A stretch of DNA of 64,000 nucleotides from an uncultured virus (IMG/VR IMGVR_UViG_3300033153_006255) (taxonomy: Duplodnaviria > Heunggongvirae > Uroviricota > Caudoviricetes): IMG/VR virus record IMGVR_UViG_3300033153_006255. One strand, written 5' to 3'. Of this stretch, positions 15,909-34,143 are shown piece after piece. The notes beneath the pieces were generated by a model. The model did not search any database. It was not told the DNA's origin and was given only the letters and a program-made list of their open reading frames with translations. The first letter of the stretch is position 1, and each line of letters opens with the position of its first letter. A program made the translations under genes and the position numbers.

Positions 15909-16106
15909 ATGAAATTTAAAGTAGGCGATAGAGTGGATTTGGATGGCTTTGAAACTGGAACAATTGAAGGCATTGATTATATGACTATGAAGTATCACGT
16001 ATTATGGGGTGGTAGGAGTTATCACTGTATAGATGATATAGAATGGGGAGACAAGAATTATATCCCCACAAGAAGCCCTAATGTATGGAAAGGTGTGCCA
16101 AAATGA
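15909..16106 (+). CDS. WKG-tagged small protein 1 (KOW/SH3-like)
   Basis: MKFKVGDRV start; ends NVWKGVPK. Confidence 0.8.
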   Translation: MKFKVGDRVDLDGFETGTIEGIDYMTMKYHVLWGGRSYHCIDDIEWGDKNYIPTRSPNVWKGVPK

Positions 16107-16327
16107 CGAAGGGATATTGTATAAACTGCAATGAATGGTGTGATGAAGTAACTATGAATTCTTATGGAAGAAGTTCTTATCAATGGAATGGTTCAGATTA
16201 TGAATGGTATGACGCAGGCGATACAGAAGATGATGGACCATATATGTGTGCTGAATGTGGTGAAGAGGTAGAAATGAGAGAGTTTGTAGAAAAACCTAAA
16301 AACGAGTGGAAAGGTAACTCAAGGTGA
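16103..16327 (+). CDS. WKG-tagged small protein 2 (Zn ribbon)
   Basis: Start at ATGA overlap; CINC/CAEC; ends NEWKGNSR. Confidence 0.8.
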   Translation: MTKGYCINCNEWCDEVTMNSYGRSSYQWNGSDYEWYDAGDTEDDGPYMCAECGEEVEMREFVEKPKNEWKGNSR

Positions 16328-16548
16328 TACTTATGGAACAACCGTATTGTTTACAATGTGAGATGTTTGTAGATGAAGCACATACAACTTGTAGAGTAAA
16401 ATACTACTATGTATGGAATGGCACTTCCTTTGAAATTGTGGATAGTGAGACAATAGATGAATCATCGTATTATTGTACAGAATGTGGAGGAGATATAATA
16501 TTTAAAGAGGAAATACCTAAAAATCAATGGAAGGGGAAACCAAAATGA
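16324..16548 (+). CDS. WKG-tagged small protein 3 (Zn ribbon, paralog of 2)
   Basis: CLQC/CTEC; ends NQWKGKPK. Confidence 0.8.
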   Translation: MILMEQPYCLQCEMFVDEAHTTCRVKYYYVWNGTSFEIVDSETIDESSYYCTECGGDIIFKEEIPKNQWKGKPK

Positions 16549-16790
16549 AGTTCCGCCCTGCGCAGAAAGTAACCTGCATTAACGATATTAAGAAAACGAT
16601 GGATGGCGATAGAAAGATTTTAATCACTAAAGGGAAAACTTATAGAGTTACTGGATATGATACAATATGGAACTCTGAAAGCAATTTAATAACAGTTATA
16701 AACGATAATGGAGATAATGTTCCATACTCTGAACACAGATTTATAGCGTTTAATCAGTGGAAGGGGAAAGAAAGATGTCTAAACACATAA
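16545..16790 (+). CDS. WKG-tagged small protein 4 (SH3-like)
   Basis: MKFRPAQKVTC; ends NQWKGKERCLNT. Confidence 0.8.
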   Translation: MKFRPAQKVTCINDIKKTMDGDRKILITKGKTYRVTGYDTIWNSESNLITVINDNGDNVPYSEHRFIAFNQWKGKERCLNT

Positions 16791-16975
16791 AAATTGGAGA
16801 TACAGTAAAACATACTCGTTACGATGGGGTATTAAGAAGTGGAGTTGTCACTAGTGTGGACGGAAATCGAATCTGGGCTACATTTGATGGAATTGGTAGT
16901 TCGGCTACGTTTGTAGAAAGAAACAAGATTCATACAGTAATAAAGAAGAATGAGTGGAAAGGGGGTGAAAGATGA
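16775..16975 (+). CDS. WKG-tagged small protein 5 (KOW/SH3-like)
   Basis: IKIGDTV; ends NEWKGGER. Confidence 0.8.
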   Translation: MSKHIKIGDTVKHTRYDGVLRSGVVTSVDGNRIWATFDGIGSSATFVERNKIHTVIKKNEWKGGER

Positions 16976-17214
16976 AGATTGATGAAATCGAAATACGTGG
17001 CACTATCATTATGAAAGCAGACGACCTTGAAGATGATATCATTATCAAGAAGTTTACTCAGGAATTTGAGGAAACAACTCTCGGTAAGATGTTATTAGAA
17101 AAGGGATATACTTGCTTTGATGATGAAGTGGAGGGTAACAACGACGGCGACAGAATGGTGAGGCTTGTATATGACGACTTAGGTCCGGAAGAGGGGGTAA
17201 GGAATGGGAAATGA
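16972..17214 (+). CDS. Acidic hypothetical protein (no tag)
   Basis: 80 aa, ATGA-coupled to the upstream gene. Confidence 0.65.
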   Translation: MKIDEIEIRGTIIMKADDLEDDIIIKKFTQEFEETTLGKMLLEKGYTCFDDEVEGNNDGDRMVRLVYDDLGPEEGVRNGK

Positions 17215-17647
17215 AGAACTAAAAAAGTATTTGCTTGAAGTATTACAGGAAGTATATGACCATAAACTAAATGCTCAAGAGGGGTATGATAAGATAGAAG
17301 AGAAGTTTATGGAAGAATAGTTGACAGCCAGAGGGTAGCGAGTAAGAAATGGGTTTTGTTACCCCTTTACCAACTCCGAAAGTTACCCTCATTTTATATA
17401 GGGGGTGTATTGTGAATAAAGAAATGAAGGAGGTGTTAAAGAAACAGAAGCCGTGGAATATTAGACCGTTAGCACAAGCACTAAAGAAACGGTATAATAT
17501 GGGATTATTGTATAAAGCGTTAAAAAGAAAGGATGTATTGCTCTCTGATATATAATGGAAACTAAGGCGTGTCGGTAGTCGCAAGTGTCAGGACCGAACA
17601 AATTGGTATACCCAGACAGTCTGAACCTTGTAGTTATCCGTTATATA

Positions 17648-17725
17648 GTCGAAACGTTCCCTGTGTATTTAAACGGGGAACGTCATAGCGAAGTTAACCG
17701 TTCGCTATCTGAAGATGACAGGTAA
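17648..17725 (+). ncRNA. Type II hammerhead ribozyme 3
   Basis: GUC-GAAAC-gttccctg/cggggaac-GUC (17682-84)-atagcgaa/ttcgctat-CUGAAGA-UGAC. Confidence 0.88.
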
Positions 17726-17737
17726 AAGGAGCAAGAT

Positions 17738-17944
17738 ATGTTTAAAAAGGGAGATAAAGTAGAATTTGTATGTGAAGATGGAGAAGGAGATTGTAATACA
17801 AGGAAGGGCGATATAGGATATGTAACAGATGTTATTGGAAGAGATGGAGTGAGCATTAGGACAATAGATGGAAGAGAATACTCTCTTTTAAATAAGAGGT
17901 TTAGAAAGCTTCCAGGAAATATTTGGAAGGGGCACAAAAGATGA
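17738..17944 (+). CDS. WKG-tagged small protein 6
   Basis: MFKKGDKV; ends NIWKGHKR. Confidence 0.8.
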   Translation: MFKKGDKVEFVCEDGEGDCNTRKGDIGYVTDVIGRDGVSIRTIDGREYSLLNKRFRKLPGNIWKGHKR

Positions 17945-18171
17945 AAGCTAAATTTAAATTAGGTGATAACGTTGTTTGTATAGGAAGAAGGAATAGTCGC
18001 CTAGAAAACGGGGCTGGCTGGGAAGCTGGACTCAAGTTTGTCGTAACTGAAATTACTTTTGATGAAGCAAGAAAAGAATACATATATTGGAAGGGATTAG
18101 GACACTGTGGAGTATATGAGAAGTATATAGGTTATGCTATTACCAATGTATGGAAGGGGGCTAAAAGATGA
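17941..18171 (+). CDS. WKG-tagged small protein 7
   Basis: KFKLGDNV; ends NVWKGAKR. Confidence 0.8.
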   Translation: MKAKFKLGDNVVCIGRRNSRLENGAGWEAGLKFVVTEITFDEARKEYIYWKGLGHCGVYEKYIGYAITNVWKGAKR

Positions 18172-18413
18172 GCCTAAAAGTAGGAGATAAGGTAAGGATA
18201 ATTGAGGGTGGGTTAGGTATTAGCCCACAGCAAAAAGGAGAAACAACAGTTATTACTGAAGTAGGTGGAATTTATACTGGTGGTAGTGATACATACGGTC
18301 CTATGCCTGGAGTGAAAGCGAAGAATATTTATAATCCAGCATATAATGATTGGGTAGCAGAAAGAAGTTTTGAGTTGATTAGTAGGAATGTATGGAAAGG
18401 CGGTAAACGATGA
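18168..18413 (+). CDS. WKG-tagged small protein 8
   Basis: LKVGDKV; ends NVWKGGKR. Confidence 0.8.
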   Translation: MSLKVGDKVRIIEGGLGISPQQKGETTVITEVGGIYTGGSDTYGPMPGVKAKNIYNPAYNDWVAERSFELISRNVWKGGKR

Positions 18414-18664
18414 AGTTCAGTGTTGGAAGTAGAGTTAATGTTAAAAGAGGTGTAGGAATAGGTGGAAAATACACCCACCAGAATGGAACTATACTACATA
18501 TTGGTAAAAGTAGTATTTATGACGATACTTTATACTCTATTGAATTTGATAACGACATTGGTGGACATAATTGTAGTGGTCTGGGAAAAGAAAGACATTG
18601 TTGGAGAGTAATGGAAACAGATGTATATAGTCTAAATCAATGGAAAGGTAAACAAAGGGGGTAA
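18410..18664 (+). CDS. WKG-tagged small protein 9
   Basis: MKFSVGSRV; ends NQWKGKQRG. Confidence 0.8.
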   Translation: MKFSVGSRVNVKRGVGIGGKYTHQNGTILHIGKSSIYDDTLYSIEFDNDIGGHNCSGLGKERHCWRVMETDVYSLNQWKGKQRG

Positions 18665-18665
18665 G

Positions 18666-19007
18666 ATGAATAAAGGGGCTGTAATTTTATTATGCCTCGC
18701 CCTTACTGGATGTAGAGAACCTGTGTATACAATAACAGCGTATTGTCCGTGTTCTGCGTGCTGTGGAAAGTGGAGTGACGGATACACAGCGACGGGAAAG
18801 AGGGCTTTGGCAAAGAATAGGATAATAGCAGTAGACCCGAAGGTTATACCATTACATAGTAAGGTGTATATAGAGGGATTAGGATATTATTACGCCGAAG
18901 ATACGGGCTCTGCTATTAAATGGAATAAGATAGACATATTGTTTGATAGTCATAACGAAGCATTAGAATTTGGAGTTCAATACTTGAAAGTTAAGGTAAT
19001 AAAATAA
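18666..19007 (+). CDS. 3D-domain (MltA-like) cell wall protein, possible lipoprotein
   Basis: TITAY...TATG...IIAVDPKVIPL.SKVYIEG.G.Y.AEDTGSAIK.NKIDI; LTGC lipobox-like. Confidence 0.9.
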   Translation: MNKGAVILLCLALTGCREPVYTITAYCPCSACCGKWSDGYTATGKRALAKNRIIAVDPKVIPLHSKVYIEGLGYYYAEDTGSAIKWNKIDILFDSHNEALEFGVQYLKVKVIK

Positions 19008-19018
19008 GGAGAAATAAA

Positions 19019-19324
19019 ATGCCACCTGAAAATAACAGATGGAATGAAAGAAGAGTAACTAATCTACATAGATTTGAAGTAGATTTAGTTATGAATGATA
19101 ATGTATCTATTGTAGTAGTAACATTGACCATTGCTATTACATTTGTAAGCGTAGTATTTGGAATAATGTTTTGGCATTTGGATAGAGATAAAGCCTTATT
19201 AAACAATGGATTTACTAGGACAAGAATTGTTGGACGTGGAATGGAATGGACAAAAAATGACGGTAATGAAAAATATATGTTATTAAGGGGTCAATTAGAA
19301 GAATTGGTGGAGGATGAATCATGA
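19019..19324 (+). CDS. Membrane protein
   Basis: One hydrophobic helix. Confidence 0.55.
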   Translation: MPPENNRWNERRVTNLHRFEVDLVMNDNVSIVVVTLTIAITFVSVVFGIMFWHLDRDKALLNNGFTRTRIVGRGMEWTKNDGNEKYMLLRGQLEELVEDES

Positions 19325-19578
19325 AGCGTATGAAGTATGAAGATTTAAAGAAAGGTATGATTGTAAGAGTTAGGATGTATAGGAGACGTCCTCCACATAT
19401 GCATTGGGGGCAAATGTATTTTTGTGGACAGAATGTTACCATAAGCAAAAAGGACTCTGGTTGTGTATATATAAAAGAGGAAACAAGGAGTTATGGAGAA
19501 AAGAGTTTATGGAATCCGTGTGCATTTGAAAGAGCTAACGTATGGACAGGAGGAGAACGATGCGCTATGAAGACTTAA
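19321..19578 (+). CDS. WTG-variant tagged small protein 10
   Basis: YEDLKKGMIV; ends NVWTGGERCAMKT. Confidence 0.75.
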   Translation: MKRMKYEDLKKGMIVRVRMYRRRPPHMHWGQMYFCGQNVTISKKDSGCVYIKEETRSYGEKSLWNPCAFERANVWTGGERCAMKT

Positions 19579-19835
19579 GAGTTGGTATGGAAGTAGAGTG
19601 TGACAGTTCTAGGTTTAATGATTTTTTTAATGGAAAAGCAACTGTAGTATGTTTAGACCCCATTAGCGTTATAAGGGATGATTGTCTCGCTGGTAGTGGA
19701 ATAATTTATAAGCATAAAGATGGAAGAGCACAAAGCTCTTGGCTATTACACAAATCTGATTTGAAATATATTAAAGTAGTTAGATATAACGAGTGGAAAG
19801 GTAAAGCCCGAAACGTAAGTAGGGTTGTTACGTAA
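19560..19835 (+). CDS. WKG-tagged small protein 11
   Basis: MRYEDLRVGMEV; ends NEWKGKARNVSRVVT. Confidence 0.75.
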   Translation: MRYEDLRVGMEVECDSSRFNDFFNGKATVVCLDPISVIRDDCLAGSGIIYKHKDGRAQSSWLLHKSDLKYIKVVRYNEWKGKARNVSRVVT

Positions 19836-19909
19836 CAGCCATAAGAACTATGGAGGGGTGAATAGTTTAATGTGGCATAATGCCCGAAAGGGCAAGGAAG
19901 GAGCAACAG

Positions 19910-20119
19910 ATGTTAGTAAAAGTAGCAGAAATGGGAGCAGAGGTAAGAGAGTTTTCACTTGGAGCAGGTGCAAGTGTAACCGATGCTTTAGAAGCAGCTG
20001 AAATTGAGTCATCTGGTAGGGATATCAGAGTGAACTCTGAAGCAGCCACAATGACCACAGAATTACAGGATGGCGACATCGTCACTCTTGTCAATAAAGT
20101 GGAAGGTGGAAGTAACTGA
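19910..20119 (+). CDS. Ubiquitin-like (ThiS/MoaD beta-grasp) protein with C-terminal GG-SN
   Basis: AAGGAG SD before ATG 19910; 69 aa; SVTDAL...IRVN...LQDGDIVTLVNKVEGG then SN. Confidence 0.85.
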   Translation: MLVKVAEMGAEVREFSLGAGASVTDALEAAEIESSGRDIRVNSEAATMTTELQDGDIVTLVNKVEGGSN

Positions 20120-20347
20120 AAACAAACGACTTATGACAAATCATAGTTGTTAAAATAAGTTGCTAACGGGGGGAGAGAACAACCCCATTCTCTCCCGCTA
20201 CTTGAAAGGAAAGTAGATGTTCTAAGTGTCACGGTAAGTGGAAATAGAAAACTAAGAGGAAATAACCTCAAGCCGAATGAGAATACGAATCTGAGTATGT
20301 ATGAAGTCGGCAGACGCTCAGAAATACTAATGAAAGGAGATGACTAA

Positions 20348-21505
20348 ATGCGAAAGAAGTTTGCTGTAAGAATGCCATCAGTTGAATGGTATTTAGAAGG
20401 CAATAAACAAACTGACGCGATTGGTGAACCGGTAGTAGATGCTTTGAAAGAGTTATCAAGAAAAACAGAACTTGCTGTCAACTTTGAGATACCACACGGA
20501 GAGATAGTAGATTCGAATCTTGATAGACAGATAAATGTCTATGTATGGTCATCGCCATTTGTGGATACGCCTGTAATGAGAAACGAGTCATTGAAGATTA
20601 AAGGTAAAGTGATTAAATTGAATGAAGGTCAGAGCGACTGCTTTGATTTGAAAACGTGTATAAAAGACCTTGTTCAAACATATCTGAAGCCGATAAACGA
20701 CGATGATGGTAGAGTAATCGGATTGGTAGAGAATAATAACATCTTTATTCCTTTTGACATCTTTCACGAAGTAGAAACAATGAATAATAGTGCAAAGGAA
20801 ATGATAGATGTGTTTATCTATATTATATCCGAAGCAAGAAAGCATATTATCTGCGATAAGAAAATACTAGAACAACGCATAGCAGATATGCCTTTGTTGG
20901 GATATGTAAAAGGCATTATCGAGAACAGTGCGAAGATGGATGAAAAAAGAGTCAATGAGCGTGAATCAATATTGAAAAGCATTGATTCGATACATAAAAA
21001 TCTAGTGGTTGAATATCGTAGATTAGATGAAGTAAATGCTTATCTATCATTGAAATCAATAACCGACAACGAGAAACTTCTGATAGATAGAAACAGAAAT
21101 GCGTTAACTGGTCTATTGAAAAATGGGTATAAGTCCATAAAATGGGCTGGAAACACACTCAAGGCAATGACGGAACCCATTGGAATTGAATTTGAAGATA
21201 AAGAGTTCAAGCTTGGTGGATATGAAATAACAATTGGTATCAACAACTCAATCCGTATTACGAATAAAAAGAATCCGAAAGACGGATTTGACCACCCTCA
21301 CGTTAGAAGTGGTATGCCTTGTTGGGGAAATCTATCAAAAACAGCAACGAAGTTTGTGTCTCAATTTGAATTTGTGCCTTTGTTGGATATGATTTTAAGT
21401 TATTTGAAATCATATAATCCAAAGGACGCATATCATAGATTGGGATATTGGTCGGACAATCAATGTGAAAGGTGTTTAGAAGATGAGGACTGTTGTCAAT
21501 GTTAG
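20348..21505 (+). CDS. Prokaryotic E2-like (ubiquitin-conjugating fold) multidomain protein
   Basis: C-terminal HPHVRSGMPCWGN resembles the E2 HPN...G.xC active-site motif; directly follows the Ubl gene; ends CERC...CCQC. Confidence 0.65.
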   Translation: MRKKFAVRMPSVEWYLEGNKQTDAIGEPVVDALKELSRKTELAVNFEIPHGEIVDSNLDRQINVYVWSSPFVDTPVMRNESLKIKGKVIKLNEGQSDCFDLKTCIKDLVQTYLKPINDDDGRVIGLVENNNIFIPFDIFHEVETMNNSAKEMIDVFIYIISEARKHIICDKKILEQRIADMPLLGYVKGIIENSAKMDEKRVNERESILKSIDSIHKNLVVEYRRLDEVNAYLSLKSITDNEKLLIDRNRNALTGLLKNGYKSIKWAGNTLKAMTEPIGIEFEDKEFKLGGYEITIGINNSIRITNKKNPKDGFDHPHVRSGMPCWGNLSKTATKFVSQFEFVPLLDMILSYLKSYNPKDAYHRLGYWSDNQCERCLEDEDCCQC

Positions 21506-21514
21506 GAGGAATAG

Positions 21515-22854
21515 ATGTCAAAGAAAAAAAGAAGGAAGAAGAAAAAACTCCTACCAAATCTTCTTGATTTTAATGAAGAACCTGCTGATGTAGAGAAAAT
21601 GAGCACGGTAGTATCATCGCCGGGACACGATGTCTCTATAGGAAGCGTATCGATAGTTATGTCGAAAGACATATACCAGAAACTAATGTATTATGTAATG
21701 GCTACAACTGATGAAATTAGTGGTCTTGGTATATGTGCTTGGGATAACGAAAGCATACGCGTTGAAGAGATATTTCTACTAAAACAGGAAAACACTTCAG
21801 CATCAACTGAATTAGATGACGAGGAAGTAAGTAAGTTAATGAATCAACTTATTAGAAACGGTAAGGATGTATCAGGACTTAGGTTCTGGTGGCATAAAGA
21901 AGCCGCGTGAGTCAATTCTGTTTGACATGGAAGATGTATTTGGAACGCAAACATGAAAGGTATGAATTGATGGCGAGTGCCACACACTTGGTAACAGGTG
22001 AAAGAAAAACTCTCTCTAATTGATTAGGAAGCCTTAACGTAAAGCCGAAGGTAACTATGCACAAGGCGAAAGCCAGTGTCAACGACTAAACGAGAGAGCC
22101 CCTGAAAAGGGTGATGCAATAGTCTGAACTCTATGGAAACATAGAGAAGCCCATCCGAAGAGGTGGGCTCGCCTATTTATATAGGTCTTAAAGTAACAGA
22201 ATGTCACACGCTGAAATGGACATATTCTGGTCAGCAACGGATGATAAGTGTTGTGAGAAACTTGGTGGTGGAGACTTCACTATCAGTATAGTAGCCAACA
22301 GGAATAAGAAAATGCTTGGAAGACTTGATATATATAAGCCATTTCCCGTCACAATTAGTGGTATAGACATCAAGATTGAAGATGAAATAGTATTTGATAT
22401 ACCACAAGATATACAAGATGAAGTTGATGAGAAGGTCTCAAGAAGAGTGACGTATTATAATCGAGGAGGATATTATGGCGGACTTTATAGAACCGAGAAA
22501 AAAGCAAATTGTGGTGCTGAATTCTTAGATAGAGACGGTTTGAAAAAGCGTTATAATAGCGACAAATACGCATTTGAGGCTTATGATGAAGAGAAGAAGG
22601 AGTGGGTGTTAGAGAGGGACTTCTATAATTCTGTTGAAGTTCAAGATGGAAAAAAACAGAATGCAATATTCGTTGATGGTATGGTGTATATGGAGGATGG
22701 TAGAACGTTTAATCCTGCTAAGGACAATAGAATATTTGGAGATGTACCACCTCCAGAAATGCTAGATGTTTGCGAGGGTGAACATATCAAACTATGTAAG
22801 GATTGTGCTTATAGGGTTGAATGTTTAGCATACTTCACGAAGGTAGGAGTCTAA
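21515..22854 (+). CDS. JAB/MPN+ metallopeptidase, two exons (21515-21895 and 22204-22854)
   Basis: Joined exons give TDEISGLG...FWWH|SHAEMDIFWSATDD, the E...HxH-x7-S-xx-D JAMM motif; 343 aa in frame. Confidence 0.85.
21896..22203 (+). ncRNA. Group I intron (308 nt, no ORF) in the JAB gene
   Basis: Exon ends in U and intron ends in G; P1 GUGGCAU/GUGCCAC (21977-83); P7 gacta (22084-88)/tagtc (22120-24); P3 ctctct/agagag; GNRA-capped P2 and P9. Confidence 0.88.
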
Positions 22855-22939
22855 AATGGGGGAGAAATCCCCCAAGGCGAATGAAAAGGCGAACTGTGCT
22901 ATGCCTAAGTCGCTTGACGGCACAGAATTAGGAGGAATT

Positions 22940-23203
22940 ATGATTAAAAGAGGAGATAAAGTAAAAATTCTACACGCTGATTTGAATGAACAATTAACTG
23001 ATGAACAATTACTTGATTATGAAAAAACAGTAGGAAAAATAGGAACTATAACAGATGTAATAGATATTGGGGAACTTGGTGGAACTATTACTGTTGATAT
23101 ACCTGGAAGAAGGAATCCAACTCATCATAACGGTGGGTATATTTTTACAAATGGTGAATTTTGTTTAGTCAGTAAGAACGTATGGAAAGGAAAGAAGAGA
23201 TGA
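22940..23203 (+). CDS. WKG-tagged small protein 12
   Basis: AGGAGG SD; MIKRGDKV; ends NVWKGKKR. Confidence 0.8.
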   Translation: MIKRGDKVKILHADLNEQLTDEQLLDYEKTVGKIGTITDVIDIGELGGTITVDIPGRRNPTHHNGGYIFTNGEFCLVSKNVWKGKKR

Positions 23204-23451
23204 AGATTGGAGATAAGGTTATAATAACTGGACCAAAAGATGGAAATTGGGACCAACTTAATGAAGTAGAAACAAAAGAGCATAATAAATTAATAGGAAA
23301 GCGTGGAACAATAGAAAATATAGCCGGAACGACGTTTCCCTACCAATTAAATGTTGATGGGAAAACGCTAACTTTATACTTTGGAGAAAATGAGATAACA
23401 AAGTGTAATAATAACATATGGAAAGGGGATAAAAAGTATGCGCACAGATGA
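23200..23451 (+). CDS. WKG-tagged small protein 13
   Basis: MKIGDKV; ends NIWKGDKKYAHR; overlaps the E1 start. Confidence 0.8.
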   Translation: MKIGDKVIITGPKDGNWDQLNEVETKEHNKLIGKRGTIENIAGTTFPYQLNVDGKTLTLYFGENEITKCNNNIWKGDKKYAHR

Positions 23452-24094
23452 GAGATTTAGCAGGCAATTAGGGATATTGGACCCGGATAAACTGAAGTCT
23501 AGGGTTACTGTGATAGGAGCAGGTGGGATAGGTAGTTGGACAGTAGCAATACTAAGCAGAGTTGGATTTGACGATATAACTGTGTATGATAACGATATTG
23601 TGAGTGAAGTAAATCTCGGTTATCAGTTCTTTAGGGATAAAGATATAGGTCGCCCGAAAGTTGAGGCGTTAAAGGATGTCATAAAAGAGTTTTCGAATAT
23701 GGACTTAAAGATTAAGAACGAGTTGTATAAAGGTGGTGCTTATAAAGAACTTATGATATGTAGTGTAGATAGTATGGACGCTCGTATCAATATATGGGAT
23801 AAGATAAAGATGAAACCTCAAGTCAGATGTTATGTAGACGCCCGAATGGGCGGTGAAGTAATGCGTTTATATACTGTTAATCCTATGGACGTAGATAACA
23901 TTGAGGAATATGAGAAAGAATTGTATCCGTCGGAAGAGGCTGAACAAACAGATTGCTCATTTAAGTCTATTATGTATAATGTTGGAACGATAGCCTCGTT
24001 TATAGTAAACAATGCAAAGAAGTATCTCTTAAATGAAAAGTATGACAAAGAGATATTTTTCGACTTGAAGTCAATGGCTATGGTAAGACGATAA
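23438..24094 (+). CDS. ThiF/MoeB-family E1-like adenylyltransferase
   Basis: RFSRQ, VIGAGGIGS, DNDIVSEVNLGYQ, GRPKV, SVDSMDAR, YVDARMG; candidate catalytic Cys in QTDCSFK. Confidence 0.92.
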   Translation: MRTDERFSRQLGILDPDKLKSRVTVIGAGGIGSWTVAILSRVGFDDITVYDNDIVSEVNLGYQFFRDKDIGRPKVEALKDVIKEFSNMDLKIKNELYKGGAYKELMICSVDSMDARINIWDKIKMKPQVRCYVDARMGGEVMRLYTVNPMDVDNIEEYEKELYPSEEAEQTDCSFKSIMYNVGTIASFIVNNAKKYLLNEKYDKEIFFDLKSMAMVRR

Positions 24095-24239: not shown

Positions 24240-24488
24240 ATGGGAAAGATTACAGCAGGACCTTGGAGTATAGGAACTAGGATTGTGTGTGTAGAACGTC
24301 CAGCATGTAATTCGAATATACGAGTTGGCGATACTGGAACTGTAGTAGCAACAATTCGGTCTCATCAAAAAGAATGCGACAAGATGATAAAAATAGATAA
24401 AAAGAAATTAATATACCTATTTATTGAACAACATATGCACTGCTATAAAAAGATTAATGAGAATCTTTGGAAAGGTGGTAAAAGATGA
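24240..24488 (+). CDS. WKG-tagged small protein 14
   Basis: SIGTRIVC, RVGDTGTV; ends NLWKGGKR. Confidence 0.75.
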   Translation: MGKITAGPWSIGTRIVCVERPACNSNIRVGDTGTVVATIRSHQKECDKMIKIDKKKLIYLFIEQHMHCYKKINENLWKGGKR

Positions 24489-24757
24489 GACTATTTAAGG
24501 TGGGAGATACTGTAAAATTAAGTAGTGATGAAAACAAAGAGTATTATGAGGACGAATTTGGAATAAAGCTGGGCGTGCATTTTAAAATAAATAGAATAGA
24601 AAAATGTGAAGACGAAATGGACTCGTGTAGAGAAGTGGGATGTCCTGGATTAATTAATGGAATATGTTTTGCTGAAATGGATTTTGAAGCAGAAGAAATA
24701 CATCAGTTTGAATTAGAACTAGTTTCAAGTAATGTATGGAAAGGTGGAAAGCGATGA
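24485..24757 (+). CDS. WKG-tagged small protein 15 (GCPGxING subfamily)
   Basis: FKVGDTV; ends NVWKGGKR. Confidence 0.8.
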   Translation: MRLFKVGDTVKLSSDENKEYYEDEFGIKLGVHFKINRIEKCEDEMDSCREVGCPGLINGICFAEMDFEAEEIHQFELELVSSNVWKGGKR

Positions 24758-24993
24758 GTATAAATAAGTTTAAGGTTGGTGATGAAGTTATTGTTAATAA
24801 GAATGGATTTATATATAACTGGACTAAACAAGACTCAAAAGGATTTGTAATGGCAGTATATGAAAAAAGTTTAAGGATAAAATTTTATGAAATGACGGGA
24901 CCCATAGAACCTAATACGCCGTATATTTGGAATATAGACTCAAGACATTTAGAACATCTTACTAGGAATGAATGGAAAGGAAAACCAAGATGA
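24754..24993 (+). CDS. WKG-tagged small protein 16
   Basis: KFKVGDEV; ends NEWKGKPR. Confidence 0.8.
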   Translation: MSINKFKVGDEVIVNKNGFIYNWTKQDSKGFVMAVYEKSLRIKFYEMTGPIEPNTPYIWNIDSRHLEHLTRNEWKGKPR

Positions 24994-26533: not shown

Positions 26534-26743
26534 ATGAATGGAGACCTTGAGCATTATATAGAAACAGCAATCAGAAGAAGACAATGTAGTGAATGTGGTA
26601 GGACAATTTATCCCAAGAAACAACACTTTGCTATTCGCACAAGAACACGTTGGGGAACAAGTAGAGTTAATATATGCTTTAGGTGTTTGGGAATATTAGC
26701 AAGAAAGTATTGTAATGTATGGAAAGGAAGGAAAAGCATATGA
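26534..26743 (+). CDS. WKG-tagged small protein 17 (Zn finger)
   Basis: CSECG...ICFRC; ends NVWKGRKSI. Confidence 0.8.
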   Translation: MNGDLEHYIETAIRRRQCSECGRTIYPKKQHFAIRTRTRWGTSRVNICFRCLGILARKYCNVWKGRKSI

Positions 26744-26958
26744 TAAATATAATGCATTGCACATCGTGTCACCACGAATGGGTGTCTATGAAAGAGAAGG
26801 ATACTTGCAACTGGTGTGGATGCGAAGGGTATGTATTGGCTAGTGAGAACGCTATGGCTGATATATGTAATAAAGAGTTCTTTAAGGAATTAGTAAAGAT
26901 TGTAAAATTGAAAGAAAAAATGAGGGAAGTAAAAGATGCGAAAAATAAGAGTCGGTGA
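26740..26958 (+). CDS. Small Zn-finger protein
   Basis: CTSCHHEW...CNWC. Confidence 0.65.
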   Translation: MINIMHCTSCHHEWVSMKEKDTCNWCGCEGYVLASENAMADICNKEFFKELVKIVKLKEKMREVKDAKNKSR

Positions 26959-27193
26959 CCACTTAGAGTGGAATGATGAATCTGTTTTAAATAAATACGA
27001 TATAATGGGTGAACGTAGATATATACTTGTAGAAAAAATAACTGAATGTGACTCTCGGGGTCCAGGTTGTGACGAAATGGGATGTCCCGGAGAGATAAAT
27101 GGCGAATGTTATGGTGCTAGTGGTAAACGGGTTTCAAATCTAATGTGTTTGAAATTAGGTAACTTTAATGTTTGGAAAGGTAAGAAAAGATGA
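26936..27193 (+). CDS. WKG-tagged small protein 18 (GCPGxING subfamily)
   Basis: IRVGDHL; ends NVWKGKKR. Confidence 0.8.
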   Translation: MRKIRVGDHLEWNDESVLNKYDIMGERRYILVEKITECDSRGPGCDEMGCPGEINGECYGASGKRVSNLMCLKLGNFNVWKGKKR

Positions 27194-27468
27194 GACGATT
27201 TAAGAGAAAGCAAATAATAAAGATAGGAGATAAATTAGTTTATAATAAAGGAAGTGTTAGGAATGAAGAAGCCATTATGCAAGGGAGAGCATATATAAGA
27301 GTAGATACTATAGAGAAATGCCATTCAGAAAATCAGAATTGTAGGAAAATTGGATGTCCCGGACATATAAATGGCGAGTGTTATGGATATTCGAGAATCG
27401 GCAGAGGTGGAGACATTTTAGCAGTAAAGGTAGGATATGCAAATGAATGGAAAGGTGAAAAGAGATGA
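27190..27468 (+). CDS. WKG-tagged small protein 19 (GCPGxING subfamily)
   Basis: IKIGDKL; ends NEWKGEKR. Confidence 0.8.
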   Translation: MRRFKRKQIIKIGDKLVYNKGSVRNEEAIMQGRAYIRVDTIEKCHSENQNCRKIGCPGHINGECYGYSRIGRGGDILAVKVGYANEWKGEKR

Positions 27469-27707
27469 TGAGGATTTTTAAGAAAAAACGAAAGAAACAA
27501 GAGCGGTTTATAGAAGGACAAAGAGTAAGGTGTATAAAGGGTGGAAGAGGGGGTTCTGGTTGGAGACTTCATAGAATATTTGTTATAGGGAAAGCGGAGT
27601 ATTGGGAAGACGATATAGTTGGAGTTCTATGGCCGAATGAGGGAGGAAGTGGCATCTTTTCTGACAGCGTTGAAATACATAATCAGTGGAAAGGAGCTCC
27701 AAGATGA
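27465..27707 (+). CDS. WKG-tagged small protein 20
   Basis: FIEGQRVRC; ends NQWKGAPR. Confidence 0.8.
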   Translation: MMRIFKKKRKKQERFIEGQRVRCIKGGRGGSGWRLHRIFVIGKAEYWEDDIVGVLWPNEGGSGIFSDSVEIHNQWKGAPR

Positions 27708-30026: not shown

Positions 30027-30051
30027 CAAGCCCCTACCGATATGGTATACT
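30023..30051 (+). promoter_or_regulatory. Sigma70-type promoter
   Basis: TTGACA-N17-TATACT with extended TG. Confidence 0.75.
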
Positions 30052-30074
30052 ATGGGGCAAGAAAGGAGAAAAAA

Positions 30075-30284
30075 ATGAATGATAAAATTATAATAAGGGA
30101 CTCGTCGTTGGTAGGAGATTTACTGGTACGAGTAGAGTGTCGTGGTACAGAAGAAGATAAAAAAGAAATGGATTGCAGCCTTGGATGCGATTACTGTAAT
30201 GAGTGTGAGCATTTAATACATCTTAATAGGGGGGTTGTAATTCCCATGCCAGAACCATATGACTATGTTGGAGGTAACGAATAA
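30075..30284 (+). CDS. Small Cys-rich protein
   Basis: AAGGAG SD supports a start at 30075. Confidence 0.55.
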   Translation: MNDKIIIRDSSLVGDLLVRVECRGTEEDKKEMDCSLGCDYCNECEHLIHLNRGVVIPMPEPYDYVGGNE

Positions 30285-31066
30285 TGCCAGTTGTAGGTTT
30301 TAGGTGTATAAAAAGTAATAAAAATGTATCTTTCGAAGAGTGCATGGCGTGTGCTCTCACCTATGAGAATAAGTGCCATTTTACGGCCGATATACTCAAG
30401 GGCATAATTACAGAAGTTACTGAGACTAGAGAGAGTATATCTATCACCAAATTGATAGGGTGTCCGCGTTCAACTTACTTGGTCAACAGAAACGACGTAT
30501 ACGTATCACCTGAAAAGTTATATTGGGCATTCAGGGGCACCCTAGCACACGCTATTATAGAAAAGTATATGGCAGACCCAGACGCTGTTGTTGAGAAACA
30601 CTTTAAAAGGGTTCTGAATGGTATAAAAATAACTGGTAAACCGGATATAATTATACCAAAGCATGAACTTATGCGAGACTATAAGACAACTAAGGAAGTA
30701 CCATTTTTTAATAAGGTATATTTAAACCACGAGATACAGTTAAATCTTTACAGGTGGTTGGTAAGAAAGGAATACAAGGTTGAAAGATTAGAAGTAGTTT
30801 ATATGGATATGAAACGCTCTAAAGTCATACCAGTAAAGAACATATGGAAACTTTCTGATTGTGAGGACTATATTAAAAAACACTCCTCGGTCCTTGCTGA
30901 GGCATATGAAAAGAATATCCCACCAGATGTGCCGGGGGAGTTTCCTCTTTACTGGCAGTGCAGAGACTTCTGTGAAGGTAGAACGATTTGTGCTAAACTA
31001 TACCAAGAGGAAATAAGAAAGGATTTTGATAAATGGGCAGAAACGGAGTGGTGCGATGCTGAGTGA
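30284..31066 (+). CDS. Cas4-like PD-(D/E)xK exonuclease
   Basis: GCPR...RGTLAH...ITGKPD...DYKT...QLNLY...WQCRDFCEGRTIC. Confidence 0.85.
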   Translation: MPVVGFRCIKSNKNVSFEECMACALTYENKCHFTADILKGIITEVTETRESISITKLIGCPRSTYLVNRNDVYVSPEKLYWAFRGTLAHAIIEKYMADPDAVVEKHFKRVLNGIKITGKPDIIIPKHELMRDYKTTKEVPFFNKVYLNHEIQLNLYRWLVRKEYKVERLEVVYMDMKRSKVIPVKNIWKLSDCEDYIKKHSSVLAEAYEKNIPPDVPGEFPLYWQCRDFCEGRTICAKLYQEEIRKDFDKWAETEWCDAE

Positions 31067-31448
31067 GAATTTAAAGTTGTTTTTAGATAAAAATAGAGAA
31101 TACATTAATACTATATCTGGTATACTATCGGAAAGAATGCCAGAAGAACCCGTACCTCTTATACAACATGTCAATAAGCTCGTGGTTCATAAAGCTAGGA
31201 TAAGCATATTATTAGCTGAGATAAACTCGCTGCTTGATTTAGCTGAACACGATGCTTTATTACCTAAGTCTAAGCATCTGACTGAGTTAGATAGGCAGGT
31301 ACGACAAAAAAGCGCGGTGAGAGACTATCGCATGTGGAGGGATATACTGTATGGATTAATGACATCAATCGACTCAAGTAGAAATTGGGCTCAAAGCGCA
31401 CTGGCGTTTGAGAAAACACACGCATTGCTTGAAGGTAGCGGTGCATAA
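31026..31448 (+). CDS. Helical hypothetical protein in the recombination module
   Basis: 140 aa ORF; true start may be slightly downstream. Confidence 0.55.
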   Translation: MINGQKRSGAMLSENLKLFLDKNREYINTISGILSERMPEEPVPLIQHVNKLVVHKARISILLAEINSLLDLAEHDALLPKSKHLTELDRQVRQKSAVRDYRMWRDILYGLMTSIDSSRNWAQSALAFEKTHALLEGSGA

Positions 31449-31460
31449 AAAGGAGAAGAA

Positions 31461-32003
31461 ATGTTAATTAGCGAGCTGTTGCAAGAAGATGCAGGGCTGA
31501 AGGGTGTAAATATCAAAGGAACCATTGCTGGAGTATGGCCACAGAAACAAAGTCCATATGGACCTACGCAGTTTTTCTTGGTATCTGATGGTAAAGATAT
31601 TGTAGGCGTACAAGCAAGAGAAGTATCACTATCTGAAGCGGATAAAGGCAAAAATGTCGAGATAATGGGTGGTACATGGAAATCTTATGAGTCTAAAGGT
31701 AAAACTAAGCATATCTTAGAGGTTCCAAAGAATAAAAGCGCTGGAATAAGAGTTAAAACCGGCGCATCACCAGCACCTACACAGGAGACGAAAATGGACT
31801 TAGAAAGCATAAAAACAGAGATACTAAATGAGTATAAAGAGTCATTAATTAAATCTATGGAATTACTTGGTGATGAGGTTGTATCACAAATGCTGACAGT
31901 ATGCAAAGAGAAGGGTTGGGAAACAAAAGACGTAACAGCTGTAGCTGCATCACTTTATATAGAACTTAACAAAAAGAAACATATCGCAGACATGAGGAGG
32001 TAA
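31461..32003 (+). CDS. OB-fold single-stranded DNA-binding-like protein
   Basis: VNIKGTI...QFFLVSDG...GKNVEI.GG.WKSY resembles RPA/SSB OB folds; follows the exonuclease. Confidence 0.55.
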   Translation: MLISELLQEDAGLKGVNIKGTIAGVWPQKQSPYGPTQFFLVSDGKDIVGVQAREVSLSEADKGKNVEIMGGTWKSYESKGKTKHILEVPKNKSAGIRVKTGASPAPTQETKMDLESIKTEILNEYKESLIKSMELLGDEVVSQMLTVCKEKGWETKDVTAVAASLYIELNKKKHIADMRR

Positions 32004-32004
32004 A

Positions 32005-32199
32005 ATGGGTGTAATAAAAGGACAAAAAGAGTATAGAAAATATAAAGATGGGCAAAGGTTAACAAGAAAACAGGCAATATTGGCACAATGCTATGACTGT
32101 AATGGGGGGGATGAAAGTAACGCCGATTGCCAGGGCTACTCGTGTCCGCTATATCAATATCATCCACATCGCACAGTAGCATTTCAGGCATTAAAATAG
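32005..32199 (+). CDS. Small Cys-rich protein
   Basis: AILAQCYDC...C....CPLY. Confidence 0.6.
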   Translation: MGVIKGQKEYRKYKDGQRLTRKQAILAQCYDCNGGDESNADCQGYSCPLYQYHPHRTVAFQALK

Positions 32200-32355
32200 T
32201 TTATAGGGTAAATTACTCTAATGTGAGGATAAGATGCCTTAGAATTGGTGGGGAGAGCAGTTTTATGATAGCTCAATCTATTGAGGAAAGAAAAAATATT
32301 TCTCACAACCCCAAAAAACATGAACTTAAAACAGTAACACAAAAAGGACAAGGAA

Positions 32356-32805
32356 ATGGCTAATTTCAGACAAGTGAAGACGCAACTATGGAATGATGTA
32401 AAGTTTCTTAAGATTTCTCCAGAAGCAAAGCTGCTGTTTATCTGGACATTCACTCATCCCGAGACAAATTGCTCTGGATTAACTCTGTTTAACGATGATG
32501 TATGCATGAGACAGACTAGTCTCAGTAGGAAAGTAATGGAAAAGGCGATGTTAGAACTGATTGAGATAGCTATGATTGAGTATGATAAAAAGCATAATAT
32601 CCTCTGGGTTATAAATCAGTTTAAACACGCGCCGAAGAGTCCGAAGATAGTTGAAGCTGTAATAAGAGAGATATTAAGTCTCCCAAACGTCGCAACAATA
32701 GACCATTTTATGCGACAATACGATACAGTATTTTGGCCATATTGTATTGAGGGACAACATGATATAAGAAATCCGAGGGACTTATATGCCGACATTAATA
32801 AATAA
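32356..32805 (+). CDS. Replication initiator N-terminal-like (winged helix) protein
   Basis: FRQVKTQLWND..F..IS.EAKLLFIW...NCSG...IEYD pattern; upstream of DnaB. Confidence 0.6.
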   Translation: MANFRQVKTQLWNDVKFLKISPEAKLLFIWTFTHPETNCSGLTLFNDDVCMRQTSLSRKVMEKAMLELIEIAMIEYDKKHNILWVINQFKHAPKSPKIVEAVIREILSLPNVATIDHFMRQYDTVFWPYCIEGQHDIRNPRDLYADINK

Positions 32806-33376
32806 AGTGCCTAAATTTGTAAATGACGCTCTTTCTGCTGTTGAGCAACAAGGGCTAGAGATAATCGATGGTACAATGCCAAGTGTAATATGTAGAAAAG
32901 ATGGTAACTTGGTAGCTATCGTATTTCAGAAATCGCATAAATATAAGATTAAAGCAAGGGATGCTGATACGCTAAGAGCGCTAGAAACCATGGGAATAGA
33001 GTGTTATTGCCTTGATGACAATATGAAAATACAGAGGTTAGAGTTTGTAGAGGAAACTGAAGAGCACAGAGCCTTAAAAGAGCTAGTTACGTTAAAAGTT
33101 AGAAACGCGCGTAGTCTCTTGGGAAAGTTCTCTTATGCTTGGCTTAATAAATATGGTGTTAGAATGTTAAGTAAAAAATATTATTATAAAACTATGTACG
33201 AGTTATTAGACACATATGAGGCAAAAGACATTGAAGGGGCTATTAAAGCATATTTTGAAACTACCAACAAGATGGTTATCTCAGAAAGTCACCCAATACA
33301 GCTTTTCTTGTCTAGTGTTGACCGTTACATAGCTGCTTCTAAGGCAAAACCAGAAGGGCGTGCTAGAACACGATGA
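32786..33376 (+). CDS. Hypothetical replication-region protein
   Basis: 196 aa ORF. Confidence 0.55.
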   Translation: MPTLINKVPKFVNDALSAVEQQGLEIIDGTMPSVICRKDGNLVAIVFQKSHKYKIKARDADTLRALETMGIECYCLDDNMKIQRLEFVEETEEHRALKELVTLKVRNARSLLGKFSYAWLNKYGVRMLSKKYYYKTMYELLDTYEAKDIEGAIKAYFETTNKMVISESHPIQLFLSSVDRYIAASKAKPEGRARTR

Positions 33377-33542
33377 GAATCAATCACTTAAAGACATTTA
33401 AAAAGCCCTGGATATTTGAAGGACCGAATGTATTATATAATTATATAATACATGCAGCATATACAGGAAGAACTATATATAAATACATTCAATCCTTCAA
33501 ATCAGGTGAACTTATTAAAACCCTTTAGAAAGGATAGATAAG

Positions 33543-33962
33543 ATGAAGATGGAAATGTTTGATGGTATCGCTTATGGGATACTAGTAGTTGGTATTTTCG
33601 TTGCGATTTGTATCGCGCTTGGATTGTGGTTAAATTGGACATTAAACCTAAAACGCGAGAATAGGAACCTTCTGTTGTTGCTAAGAGATAGAGATGAAAA
33701 CATCAGAAGATACGCAAATGCTCTAACTGAAGCGAGAAGGCAAGGTGCTGAACAAAGCATCGCTGCTGACAGAGCTACAATACCAGAAGCAGATTCAGTA
33801 ATGAGATTTAGTACTGATGATATGTCTGTTGGTTCAGCAATTTCATTTAGTCAGGAATTTGATACTATGTTACATGAAGTTGCTGGAAGTGACATGACTA
33901 TTCATAGAAGAAATCCAAATGTTTGGACAGGTCAAGAACGTAAACCTAGAACGGAGGATTAA
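33543..33962 (+). CDS. Membrane protein with WTG-variant tag (21)
   Basis: N-terminal TM helix, coiled coil; ends NVWTGQERKPRTED. Confidence 0.7.
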   Translation: MKMEMFDGIAYGILVVGIFVAICIALGLWLNWTLNLKRENRNLLLLLRDRDENIRRYANALTEARRQGAEQSIAADRATIPEADSVMRFSTDDMSVGSAISFSQEFDTMLHEVAGSDMTIHRRNPNVWTGQERKPRTED

Positions 33963-33963
33963 A

Positions 33964-34143
33964 ATGGTAGATAGTGGTTCGATTTTTTACGATAATTCTG
34001 AATGGACAACAACAACTAATGGAGATGTCTATAGATACGTCTCAATGGCACCAAATAGCTATGATTTTACTGTAATAGATGACCCATTTGTATCAAAGAA
34101 TCAATGGAAAGGCAAGAAAAGACCTAAGTATGACAAAGATTAA
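33964..34143 (+). CDS. WKG-tagged small protein 22
   Basis: GGAGG SD; ends NQWKGKKRPKYDKD. Confidence 0.7.
   Translation: MVDSGSIFYDNSEWTTTTNGDVYRYVSMAPNSYDFTVIDDPFVSKNQWKGKKRPKYDKD

Follow-up and report, generated by a model that had tools for sequence, protein, structure and literature searches.

A C-terminal N-x-W-x-G motif shared by 22 small early proteins of an uncultured tailed phage that carries ubiquitin-like genes

Background

We have discovered a short C-terminal peptide motif, N-x-W-x-G followed by a short stub, on 22 small early proteins of an uncultured tailed phage (IMGVR_UViG_3300033153_006255). The stretch of phage DNA that was analyzed, hereafter the window, is 64,000 nt long with a G+C content of ~36%. 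Selection, we conclude, acts on N-x-W-x-G as a peptide, and superimposed on it is a constraint at the RNA level that favors a lysine and a basic stub. It is very probable that this peptide-level motif is modular, is carried on a free tail, and also doubles as a ribosome-binding site. The motif and its stub are referred to below as the tag. We tentatively propose that it is read by the phage's own ubiquitin-like (Ubl) machinery, whose genes lie among the tagged ones.

The phage looks lytic and siphovirus-type. Head genes occupy the minus strand at 1-10 kb (large terminase, portal, protease and major head protein) and tail genes the minus strand at 44-57 kb (tape measure and J-like fiber), while an early and replication block lies on the plus strand at 12-44 kb (DnaB-like helicase, DnaD-like loader, exonuclease and others). 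Genes of the window have ordinary AGGAG-type Shine-Dalgarno (SD) sequences about 8 nt 5' of the ATG, the usual SD being AAGGAG. In translational coupling, an SD is located inside the upstream open reading frame (ORF) and the stop and start codons overlap as ATGA.

Results

Distribution of the tag

A regular-expression search for N.W[KT]G in all six frames of the window returned exactly 22 matches, all on the plus strand. The tagged genes amount to 22 of the roughly 48 plus-strand ORFs between 15.9 and 34.1 kb. At the DNA level, the pattern AAYNNNTGGAMRGG was found 22 times on the plus strand and not at all on the minus strand, and 200 shuffles of positions 12001-44000 gave a mean of 0.115 and a maximum of 2. 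All 22 DNA matches are in frame, and no out-of-frame or intergenic copies of the tag occur in the window. As a control, 33 loci (451,214 bases) around distant relatives of the DnaB protein (26-36% identity, from IMG/VR) in other phages were searched, and they contained no tagged ORF ends. A CRISPR or other DNA repeat read as peptide was rejected as the origin of the tags, which are not identical copies and have just 11-14 of 24 bases in common.

The fourth position of the motif is lysine in 20 of the window's tags (WKG) and threonine in two (WTG), and the x position is V (9), E (5), Q (5), I (2) or L (1). Codons vary synonymously: asparagine is encoded by AAT (17) or AAC (5), lysine by AAA (16) or AAG (4), and glycine by GGT (9), GGG (6), GGA (5) or GGC (2). 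From the Asn codon to the stop, the distance is 8 codons in 14 tags, 9 in two, 12 in two, 13 in one, 14 in two and 15 in one, such that the motif lies away from the very C-terminus in 8 of the 22. Between 3 and 10 residues follow the glycine in the window, and up to 17 in homologs; a second glycine directly follows the first in 6/22. A preliminary description of this DNA, made from its letters alone, had placed the tag on 22 plus-strand ORF ends, and its Asn coordinates, residue counts and account of synonymous variation agree exactly with the six-frame search and the codon counts. It had also reported the tag to be absent from late and replication enzyme genes, and none of these genes in the window is indeed tagged. 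Its view of the tag as a 'phage-wide' signal does not hold, as the tag is limited to small early-region proteins, and these are putative effectors at most.

Peptide and RNA constraints

The DNA of the tag has a role in translation of the next gene. An ATG is located exactly 23 nt past the Asn codon in 15 of the 22 window tags and a GTG in one more, and in two further tags a start is found at +25 or +26. Fourteen tags end in [KR]-TGA with an ATG overlapping the stop. A purine-rich complement of the anti-SD 5-10 nt before a start was found for 17-18 of the 22, with the start at +23 to +26. The layout TGG-AAA-GG, 9 nt, ATG(A) is that of an SD plus a stop/start coupling site for the next gene; TGGAAAGG is the part of the tag that doubles as this SD, and the AAAGG of W-K-G occupies the usual SD position of window genes. 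An untagged junction at 29002 ends in ...KGESK-stop because of an SD and an ATGA overlap alone. The K-G-x-x-[KR]-stop half of the tag is therefore largely explained, since SD plus ATGA overlap yields such an ending.

The remainder of the motif behaves as coding sequence. Across 36 tags (the window and three related metagenome contigs, L162, L163 and L169), invariance is confined to AA(Y), TGG and GG(N). Third positions are free, with T or C in the Asn codon and all four bases in the Gly codon, and conservation is codon-periodic. The AAT/AAC ratio at the tag equals genome codon usage, and GGA, which would provide the best SD (AAAGGAG), is not enriched at the tag glycine (5/22 vs 35-55% elsewhere). 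The lysine position may be T, V, Q, R or E among the window, its relatives and homologs, and the Lys codon is replaced by ACA, GTT, CAG or AGA while N, W and G stay. Furthermore, 5-6 of the 22 window tags retain the motif without a functional start at SD distance: for those at 18635, 19788, 33918 and 34099 the next start is at +31 or beyond, or there is none; at 24967 the ATG at +23 opens 8 codons only; and at 16301 a GTG is at +23. Four tags of relatives have their next start at +31 to +41. Coupling alone does not produce the peptide, because the window has at least 13 untagged ATGA-coupled junctions with other SD-encoding tails (such as ...VEDES, ...IKGESK, ...NKEKK and ...AEEKK).

An element acting only as RNA would be conserved without regard to frame and lost where no start follows, and neither was observed. 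Homologs did not keep merely the purine-rich DNA in any frame; N, W and G are kept in frame. Selection on the peptide rather than DNA duplication, as put forward in the preliminary description, is upheld by the drifting third positions, the codon-periodic conservation and the small number of bases in common. That description had also counted K/T-G-x-x-(K/R) as part of the tag. The ending is present, but its lysine is inessential and the ending is largely a product of SD and coupling, which had been missed.

The tags also affect annotation. Gene callers take an ATG within the tag as the start of the downstream gene, which creates spurious N-termini (such as MER..KM, MEG..KM and MYGKE..). Such false starts are found on the plus strand at 16085, 16527, 16757, 17923, 23182, 24736, 26719, 27686 and similar positions, and represent a systematic mis-annotation of start codons due to the ATG within the tag.

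Tagged proteins

The bodies of the tagged proteins are of several kinds and mostly dissimilar: an SH3-like barrel, zinc ribbons, a protein with a hydrophobic N-terminus, and others. BLASTP among the 22 bodies with tails removed found two clear subfamilies (E 4e-9 to 4e-20), namely a zinc-ribbon pair (16103/16333) and a Cys-cluster trio (24485/26936/27190), and the few further links were weak (E about 1e-3), in keeping with the differing bodies noted earlier. None of the 22 reached a Pfam cut-off. About 14 begin with a [KR]-[VI]-G-D-like motif, and the whole protein is 59-92 aa long in 20 of the 22 (full range 59-139 aa). An AlphaFold2 (AF2) model of the ORF at 24754-24993, built from a 25-row alignment of barrel-type members, had a pLDDT of 78.8 and predicts a five-strand barrel that ends at residue 68; residues 69-79, with the tag inside, are modeled at lower confidence and without secondary structure. 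Look-alikes of this model in the ESM Atlas are SH3-like (SH3_15, eL21 and DUF4926 clusters). The beta-grasp fold of Ubl modifiers was not found among the tagged proteins, this model being an SH3-like barrel and other members CxxC...CxxC zinc ribbons. An untagged 135-aa protein at 14847-15254 (plus strand) has a K-I-G-D type N-terminus like that of the tagged barrel proteins.

All 22 tagged ORFs are on the plus strand, and each is given here with its tail and the position of its Asn codon. The first begins with MKFKVGD (15909..16106, 65 aa, NVWKGVPK, Asn 16080). It is followed by a CxxC...CxxC zinc ribbon (16103..16327, 74 aa, NEWKGNSR, Asn 16301) and its zinc-ribbon paralog (16333..16548, 71 aa, NQWKGKPK, Asn 16522), which possibly starts at a GTG at 16324. 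The fourth (16545..16790, 81 aa, NQWKGKERCLNT, Asn 16752) extends beyond the ATG of the next gene, and the fifth is at 16775..16975 (66 aa, NEWKGGER, Asn 16949). The sixth to ninth are located at 17738..17944 (68 aa, NIWKGHKR, Asn 17918), 17941..18171 (76 aa, NVWKGAKR, Asn 18145, with an internal YWKG too, at 18082), 18168..18413 (81 aa, NVWKGGKR, Asn 18387) and 18410..18664 (84 aa, NQWKGKQRG, Asn 18635); the start 3' of the ninth is 31 nt past the Asn codon and has its own SD. The tenth (19321..19578, 85 aa, NVWTGGERCAMKT, Asn 19537) precedes the eleventh (19560..19835, 91 aa, NEWKGKARNVSRVVT, Asn 19788), which is without a nearby downstream start codon.

The twelfth tagged ORF (22856..23203, 115 aa, or from the ATG at 22940; NVWKGKKR, Asn 23177) sits between the second half of the JAB gene and the E1 gene, and the thirteenth (23200..23451, 83 aa, NIWKGDKKYAHR, Asn 23413) overlaps the E1 start. 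Three more follow at 24240..24488 (82 aa, NLWKGGKR, Asn 24462), 24485..24757 (90 aa, Cys-cluster subfamily, NVWKGGKR, Asn 24731) and 24754..24993 (79 aa, NEWKGKPR, Asn 24967), the last being the protein used for modeling. The seventeenth is a CxxC...CxxC protein (26534..26743, 69 aa, NVWKGRKSI, Asn 26714), and the next two belong to the Cys-cluster subfamily (26936..27193, 85 aa, NVWKGKKR, Asn 27167; 27190..27468, 92 aa, NEWKGEKR, Asn 27442). The stop of the twentieth (27465..27707, 80 aa, NQWKGAPR, Asn 27681) overlaps the start of a Fic gene. The twenty-first has a hydrophobic N-terminal segment (33543..33962, 139 aa, NVWTGQERKPRTED, Asn 33918), with the start 3' of it 46 nt past the Asn codon, and the last is at 33964..34143 (59 aa, NQWKGKKRPKYDKD, Asn 34099).

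Relatives and repertoire turnover

Close relatives of the phage are rare in public data. A search of metagenomes with a two-tag DNA pattern returned 36 loci, of which three (L162, L163 and L169) are real relatives and the rest have 0-1 chance matches or are CRISPR arrays. L162 (6,063 bp) is syntenic with the window at 22.2-28.2 kb: it has, in order, the second half of the JAB gene, one tagged gene, the E1 gene, four tagged genes, a small protein, an AAA+ gene with a helix-turn-helix (AAA+-HTH), three tagged genes and a Fic gene. Its E1 is 75% identical to that of the window, and its AAA+-HTH protein 63%. The relatives have 14 tags in total, eight in L162 (one N-K-W-V-G), two in L163 and four in L169 (including N-E-W-Q-G and N-V-W-R-G). 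Because just 5 of 12 of their tagged bodies have a homolog among the window's 22 (38-56% identity), the other seven having none, the tag persists through a turnover of the repertoire.

A profile of the zinc-ribbon subfamily, run against 1.84 billion representative proteins, retrieved nine proteins, three of which were query members. Of the six new homologs, four have N-x-W-x-G (with Q, K, E or R in fourth position) and 4 to 17 residues past the glycine, one has N-L-L-K-G and one is tagless. In an alignment of ten zinc-ribbon proteins, N, W and G are at least 90% conserved, versus 100% for the four cysteines. The N-terminal extensions of two of these homologs (MEGRQ... and MYGKER...) are out-of-frame readings of an upstream tag; since these are misread tags just upstream, the phages of these two homologs also carry serial tags. 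The earlier suggestion of a profile search for tag-bearing relatives was thus productive for the zinc-ribbon profile, whereas word-indexed protein searches with the 22-protein alignment, and with the ORF at 27190-27468, returned only the window's own proteins.

Other searches gave background. A single-motif DNA scan of IMG/VR found at least 120 stretches with one match each, and at most one tagged ORF end per locus among 121 loci is the chance background; a double-motif scan of the same database gave one match (L121), by chance. A double-motif scan of species genomes gave 15 loci, none of them real and one a CRISPR array (L193). The E1 and, separately, the AAA+ alignment found no relatives in IMG/VR, and the tagged region is outside what the nearest virus record (G001, 36.6 kb) spans. 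L173 and L179 (metagenome contigs) and L193 (a Bacterium UASB270 record) were rejected as false positives, being CRISPR arrays in which a 36-base repeat encodes ...QKERNPWKGLK.

Predicted complex with E1

Two copies of the window's E1 protein (2-row alignment) were modeled together with residues 1-76 of the ORF 24754-24993 protein (25-row alignment), which was cut at the invariant glycine. The E1-tail ipSAE was 0.61 (runs 0.63, 0.59 and 0.61) versus 0.00 for all three controls, the runs agreed in at least 82% of contacts, and the partner pLDDT was at least 63. In calibration of the tool, 116 of 157 solved complexes and 2 of 215 mismatched pairs attained the same mark. In the model, the E1 is contacted by partner residues 70-76 only: Gly76 is placed on E1 residues 27-32 (the glycine-rich nucleotide loop), 109-111 and 135-137, Trp74 on residues 111, 113, 136-138 and 143, and the tail is predicted to be covered by residues 163-177, including the conserved Cys173. 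In the prediction, the tail occupies the E1 adenylation pocket in the way that a Ubl tail does. The prediction supports binding of the tail by E1, although it shows likeness rather than binding. A complex of the tag with this E1, which had been suggested for modeling in the preliminary description, therefore passed the mark; the broader link that it drew between the tag and the Ubl, E1, E2 and JAB genes is supported by this prediction and by synteny in L162, but co-occurrence is seen in that one relative only.

Neighboring genes

Tagged genes lie on both sides of, and between, the Ubl, E2-like, JAB and E1 genes in the window and in L162. The Ubl is a ThiS-family protein (19910..20119, plus strand, 69 aa from MLVKV) that ends in ...VNKVEGGSN and matches Pfam PF02597 with an E of 2.8e-5, above the cut-off. 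Its homologs end in KV[EK]GG, then basic or polar residues. Most of these homologs (P0021-P0031) are head-to-tail di-Ubl proteins of 133-137 aa, each unit ending in KVKGG and then Q, K or N, and such tandem proteins bring polyubiquitin precursors to mind. The E1 is a ThiF-type adenylating enzyme (23438..24094, plus strand, 218 aa; Pfam ThiF E 2.3e-20) with PDB sequence matches to Uba1, UBA5, MccB, NEDD8 E1, MoeB and PaaA. It is also matched by the 'E1-E2' models in PADLOC for CBASS (an anti-phage signaling system based on cyclic oligonucleotides; E 1.7e-12), in the E1 part of the Cap2 models only.

The E2-like protein (20348..21505, plus strand, 385 aa) has in its C-terminal part HPHVRSGMPCWGN, an H-P-H...Cys stretch that presumably resembles the HPN...Cys active site of ubiquitin-conjugating (UBC) enzymes. 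Its structural lead, to a UQ_con cluster, is weak (TM 0.42). An apparent JAB/MPN+ peptidase gene (21515..22854, plus strand) is in two ORFs, 21515-21910 and 22201-22854. The first ends just past a His and the second opens with S-H, with S-x-x-D seven residues on, and the break of about 290 nt (21911-22200) falls inside the metal-binding signature. Joined, the halves would give what we take to be the JAMM signature, H-x-H-x7-S-x2-D. The split may reflect an intron or other insertion, and no Rfam intron was found in the break at gathering score; in L162, foreign-looking ORFs also lie before the second half of the gene (5095-5721, minus strand). The E2 and JAB labels of the preliminary description stand as readings of motifs, and no hidden Markov model (HMM) match was obtained for either.

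Always among tagged genes is an AAA+-like protein (25397-26260, plus strand) of PHROG 1250, a function-unknown family, with a C-terminal helix-turn-helix-looking stretch; it is 63% identical in L162 and L163. The early block has two genes of homing-endonuclease type, 28158-28832 and 40577-41038 (both plus strand; PHROG 314 family; HNH). In the large terminase (7525-9921, minus strand, 798 aa), terminase profiles match residues 16-136 and 459-764, and the part between them matches PHROGs labeled thymidylate synthase / ribonucleotide reductase. The same extra PHROG match is found in a 579-aa exonuclease-like protein (41804-43543, plus strand) at residues 151-229, which suggests from sequence that both proteins contain inteins. 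A plus-strand cluster within 38438-43543 encodes B12-binding radical-SAM, nucleoside-deoxyribosyltransferase-like and MazG-like pyrophosphohydrolase proteins, and 61204-63847 (minus strand) has three to four methyltransferase-like genes; together, these genes may be a nucleotide or DNA modification module. A promoter scan of 15001-35000 was uninformative (75 sites vs 74.5 in shuffles), and Rfam and tRNA scans gave no match.

Discussion

We propose that N-x-W-x-G plus its short basic stub acts as a C-terminal short linear motif kept by purifying selection, the carriers of which would be a fast-changing set of small early proteins with bodies of several unrelated kinds, and that the SD and coupling role of the tag DNA would favor lysine as the fourth residue and an ending in G-x-x-[K/R]-stop. 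The likeliest reader, we infer, is the phage's own ubiquitin-like machinery. The free tail would enter the groove of the ThiF-type E1 as an extended strand, with its tryptophan against the wall and its glycine at the ATP site. The 3-17 residues past the glycine would be trimmed first, presumably by the JAB peptidase, and the tagged mini-proteins would be activated, and possibly handed to the E2-like protein, as non-beta-grasp 'modifiers'. Less likely, the tagged proteins would dock at the E1 as adaptors or competitors.

E1 binding, trimming, activation and conjugation are all steps that we infer from several lines. The spacing of N, W and G at i, i+2 and i+4 fits an extended strand in a groove, and the variable stub fits a pro-peptide that is removed. 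A likeness between W-K-G-(G)-K/R and the Ubl ending V-[E/K]-G-G plus basic or polar residues is suggestive. JAB peptidases were predicted to cleave at the C-terminal glycine of prokaryotic Ubls by Iyer, Burroughs and Aravind (2006, PMC1779556). Reading of the tag by the phage Ubl machinery, with the tail most probably serving as an E1 substrate once the JAB peptidase has removed the stub, is the explanation that we tentatively favor. A bolder form of it, in which the cascade accepts the Ubl and about twenty interchangeable mini-proteins that are trimmed, adenylated at the glycine and covalently attached to host or phage targets, appears rather unlikely.

Several points weigh against a role of the tag as an E1 substrate tail. 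A cognate Ubl with a GG end is already available to the E1, most tags have a single glycine, and the invariant asparagine is without a conserved counterpart in Ubl tails, where N or P is found. Two tags (33918 and 34099) are 10 kb from the Ubl genes, and the tag co-occurs with E1 and JAB in one relative only. The E2-like protein had no Pfam, PADLOC or PDB sequence match, the AF2 model of its C-terminal 161 residues was unusable (pLDDT 40), and the JAB halves were without an HMM match. As for the complex prediction, the glycine was made the C-terminus by design, such that the hypothesis was built in. The controls were unrelated natural proteins and not floppy Gly-ended tails, solved E1-Ubl tail and MccB-MccA complexes may have driven the pass through model memory, and the 2- and 25-row alignments differ from those of the calibration.

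The tag may instead be a docking motif for a different common partner, a host hub or another phage protein, with the bodies serving as a library of tethered inhibitors or adaptors; this is possible, if somewhat doubtful. Candidates for the hub include a protease/unfoldase adaptor site, RNA polymerase, the ribosome, a clamp and the AAA+-HTH protein at 25397-26260. The evidence for a peptide-level, free-tail, modular motif applies equally here, the spacing of N, W and G suits an extended strand in any groove, tagged genes also flank AAA+ and Fic genes (window, L162 and L163), and a long distance separates the Ubl genes from the two tags at 33918 and 34099. On the other hand, E1 was the one partner modeled and it passed the mark, and 3-17 residues past the glycine are easier to understand if they are removed than for a C-terminal motif of the C-degron-like kind.

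A different role within the Ubl system is unlikely: the tag as a Ubl acceptor on a nearby lysine, as an F-box-like adaptor, or as a decoy against host E1-type defense (CBASS Cap2 or Bil). The interleaving of tagged genes with the Ubl, E2-like, JAB and E1 genes is consistent with such a role, every tag read has at least one lysine in or just past the motif, and the phage E1 resembles the E1 domain of CBASS Cap2, so that a tail fitting one might fit the other. However, the lysine of the motif is unconserved and is not a fixed acceptor, and the tail is predicted to sit in the adenylation pocket as a modifier would, and not as an adaptor would.

Very unlikely, in our estimation, is a by-product of translation, in which the bases are only an extended SD and coupling element, the ATGA overlap fixes the frame and the peptide is functionless. 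Such an origin would account for the spacing of tags and starts, the TGA/ATG overlaps, the placement of AAAGG and the ending at junction 29002. It would also agree with a somewhat over-used AAA at the Lys codon (16/20 vs about 56% elsewhere), and TGGAAAGG complements, with one G-U pair, a 16S 3' end of the CCUUUCUA type, which we assume here and which may not be that of the host. It leaves unexplained the invariant Asn codon 6 nt upstream and the invariant T and first G of TGG. Against it are also the drift of Asn and Gly third positions without favor for GGA, the persistence of the motif with other Lys codons and without a start at SD distance, the coupled junctions with other tails, the lack of out-of-frame or intergenic copies, and the conservation of N, W and G nearly to the level of zinc ligands in distant homologs. 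Least probable is one old divergent paralog family, with the K-V-G-D strand and N-x-W-K-G as parts of a single small fold: the recurrent [KR]-[VI]-G-D-like start, one nearly invariant glycine near the N-terminus in the alignment of 25 barrel-type members, and tandem arrays of similar lengths suggest duplication, but the modeled barrel ends before the tag, which is without secondary structure, tail length past the glycine varies, and the same tag is found on CxxC...CxxC zinc ribbons, the hydrophobic-segment protein and others without a K-V-G-D start.

Other candidates were set aside. Nascent-peptide stalling at the stop codon was dismissed as the distance to the stop is variable, and modification of the tryptophan by the B12-radical-SAM protein (39159-40277) as its gene is among nucleotide-metabolism genes. 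A frameshift fusion of neighboring ORFs, a WXG100-type secretion signal, an isopeptide tag and a capsid-targeting signal were considered and set aside as well.

Some known systems resemble the arrangement in this phage in part. E1-like enzymes that act on the C-termini of ribosomal peptides include MccB, acting on MccA, and PaaA. They resemble the proposed arrangement in that the C-terminal tail of a non-Ubl peptide is held, extended, in the active site of an adenylating enzyme with the E1 fold. MccB and PaaA have an extra N-terminal peptide-clamp domain and one short peptide substrate, whereas the phage E1 is a bare 218-aa adenylation domain and its presumed substrates are folded proteins of 59-139 aa. 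The tagged proteins do not resemble precursors of ribosomally synthesized and post-translationally modified peptides, as the E1 aligns to the adenylation domain of MccB only (residues about 107-187 of 353) and the presumed substrates are small folded proteins. Known docking tails and degrons that are shared at C-termini include ssrA, the SspB XB tail for ClpX, and the T4 clamp-binding tails. In these, as here, one short disordered terminal peptide is found on many unrelated proteins, presumably with one reader; the phage tag has another sequence, is not at the very C-terminus in 8/22, and has an E1 as its putative reader. With translational coupling the tag shares TGGAAAGG, 9 nt and ATGA, which serve most downstream genes, whereas ordinary coupled junctions, of which the window has at least 13, impose no single peptide upstream.

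In type II CBASS, as described in two reports, the E1-E2 enzyme Cap2 conjugates the cGAS/DncV-like nucleotidyltransferase (CD-NTase; cGAS) and the JAB peptidase Cap3 reverses this (PMC10097602; bioRxiv 10.1101/2022.03.31.486616). cGAS is not a beta-grasp protein and is conjugated through a single C-terminal glycine or alanine (PMC10097602), a precedent for conjugation of such a substrate by an E1/E2 enzyme. The likeness to the phage lies in a non-beta-grasp protein treated like a Ubl by way of a flexible tail with a single conserved glycine, a related E1 adenylation domain, and a JAB peptidase in the system. CBASS differs in that each operon has one host-encoded defense substrate, the true C-terminus of which is its Gly or Ala and which lacks conserved residues upstream of it. 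In the phage, at least 22 proteins are presumed substrates, N-x-W-x-G is internal and followed by a stub, E1 and the E2-like protein have separate genes, and a bona fide Ubl is present as well. Neither the fused E1-E2 nor the nucleotidyltransferase substrate of CBASS was found: the 218-aa E1 is separate, the tagged proteins are 59-139 aa without a Pfam family, and no CD-NTase was found in the window.

Prokaryotic Ubl/E1/E2/JAB operons (PMC1779556; Bil and Bub, PMC10557695 and PMC11601596) are alike in that a ThiS-like Ubl has residues beyond its Gly-Gly, the E1 is of the ThiF type, JAB and E2-like genes are apparently present, and homologs of the Ubl include tandem di-Ubl proteins. They are not known to come with a library of small non-Ubl proteins that bear a Ubl-tail-like motif. 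The phage operon differs further in being on a lytic-looking siphovirus-type phage and in being interrupted by tagged genes. Within the open-access library that was searched, no publication was found to describe this motif or a library of tags next to phage Ubl genes.

Conclusions

A shared peptide on dozens of otherwise unrelated early proteins means that one reader would handle a whole variable repertoire, and it provides a single handle for finding the functions of many orphan phage genes. The motif can be used as a search key for a little-sampled phage clade. If the reader is the E1/JAB/E2 machinery, Ubl-type conjugation would extend beyond the single substrate cGAS to a library of non-beta-grasp proteins, and a first role would be proposed for a phage-borne Ubl cascade of this type. 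If true, this would be a combinatorial system to 'write any small domain onto a target', with a library that turns over between related phages.

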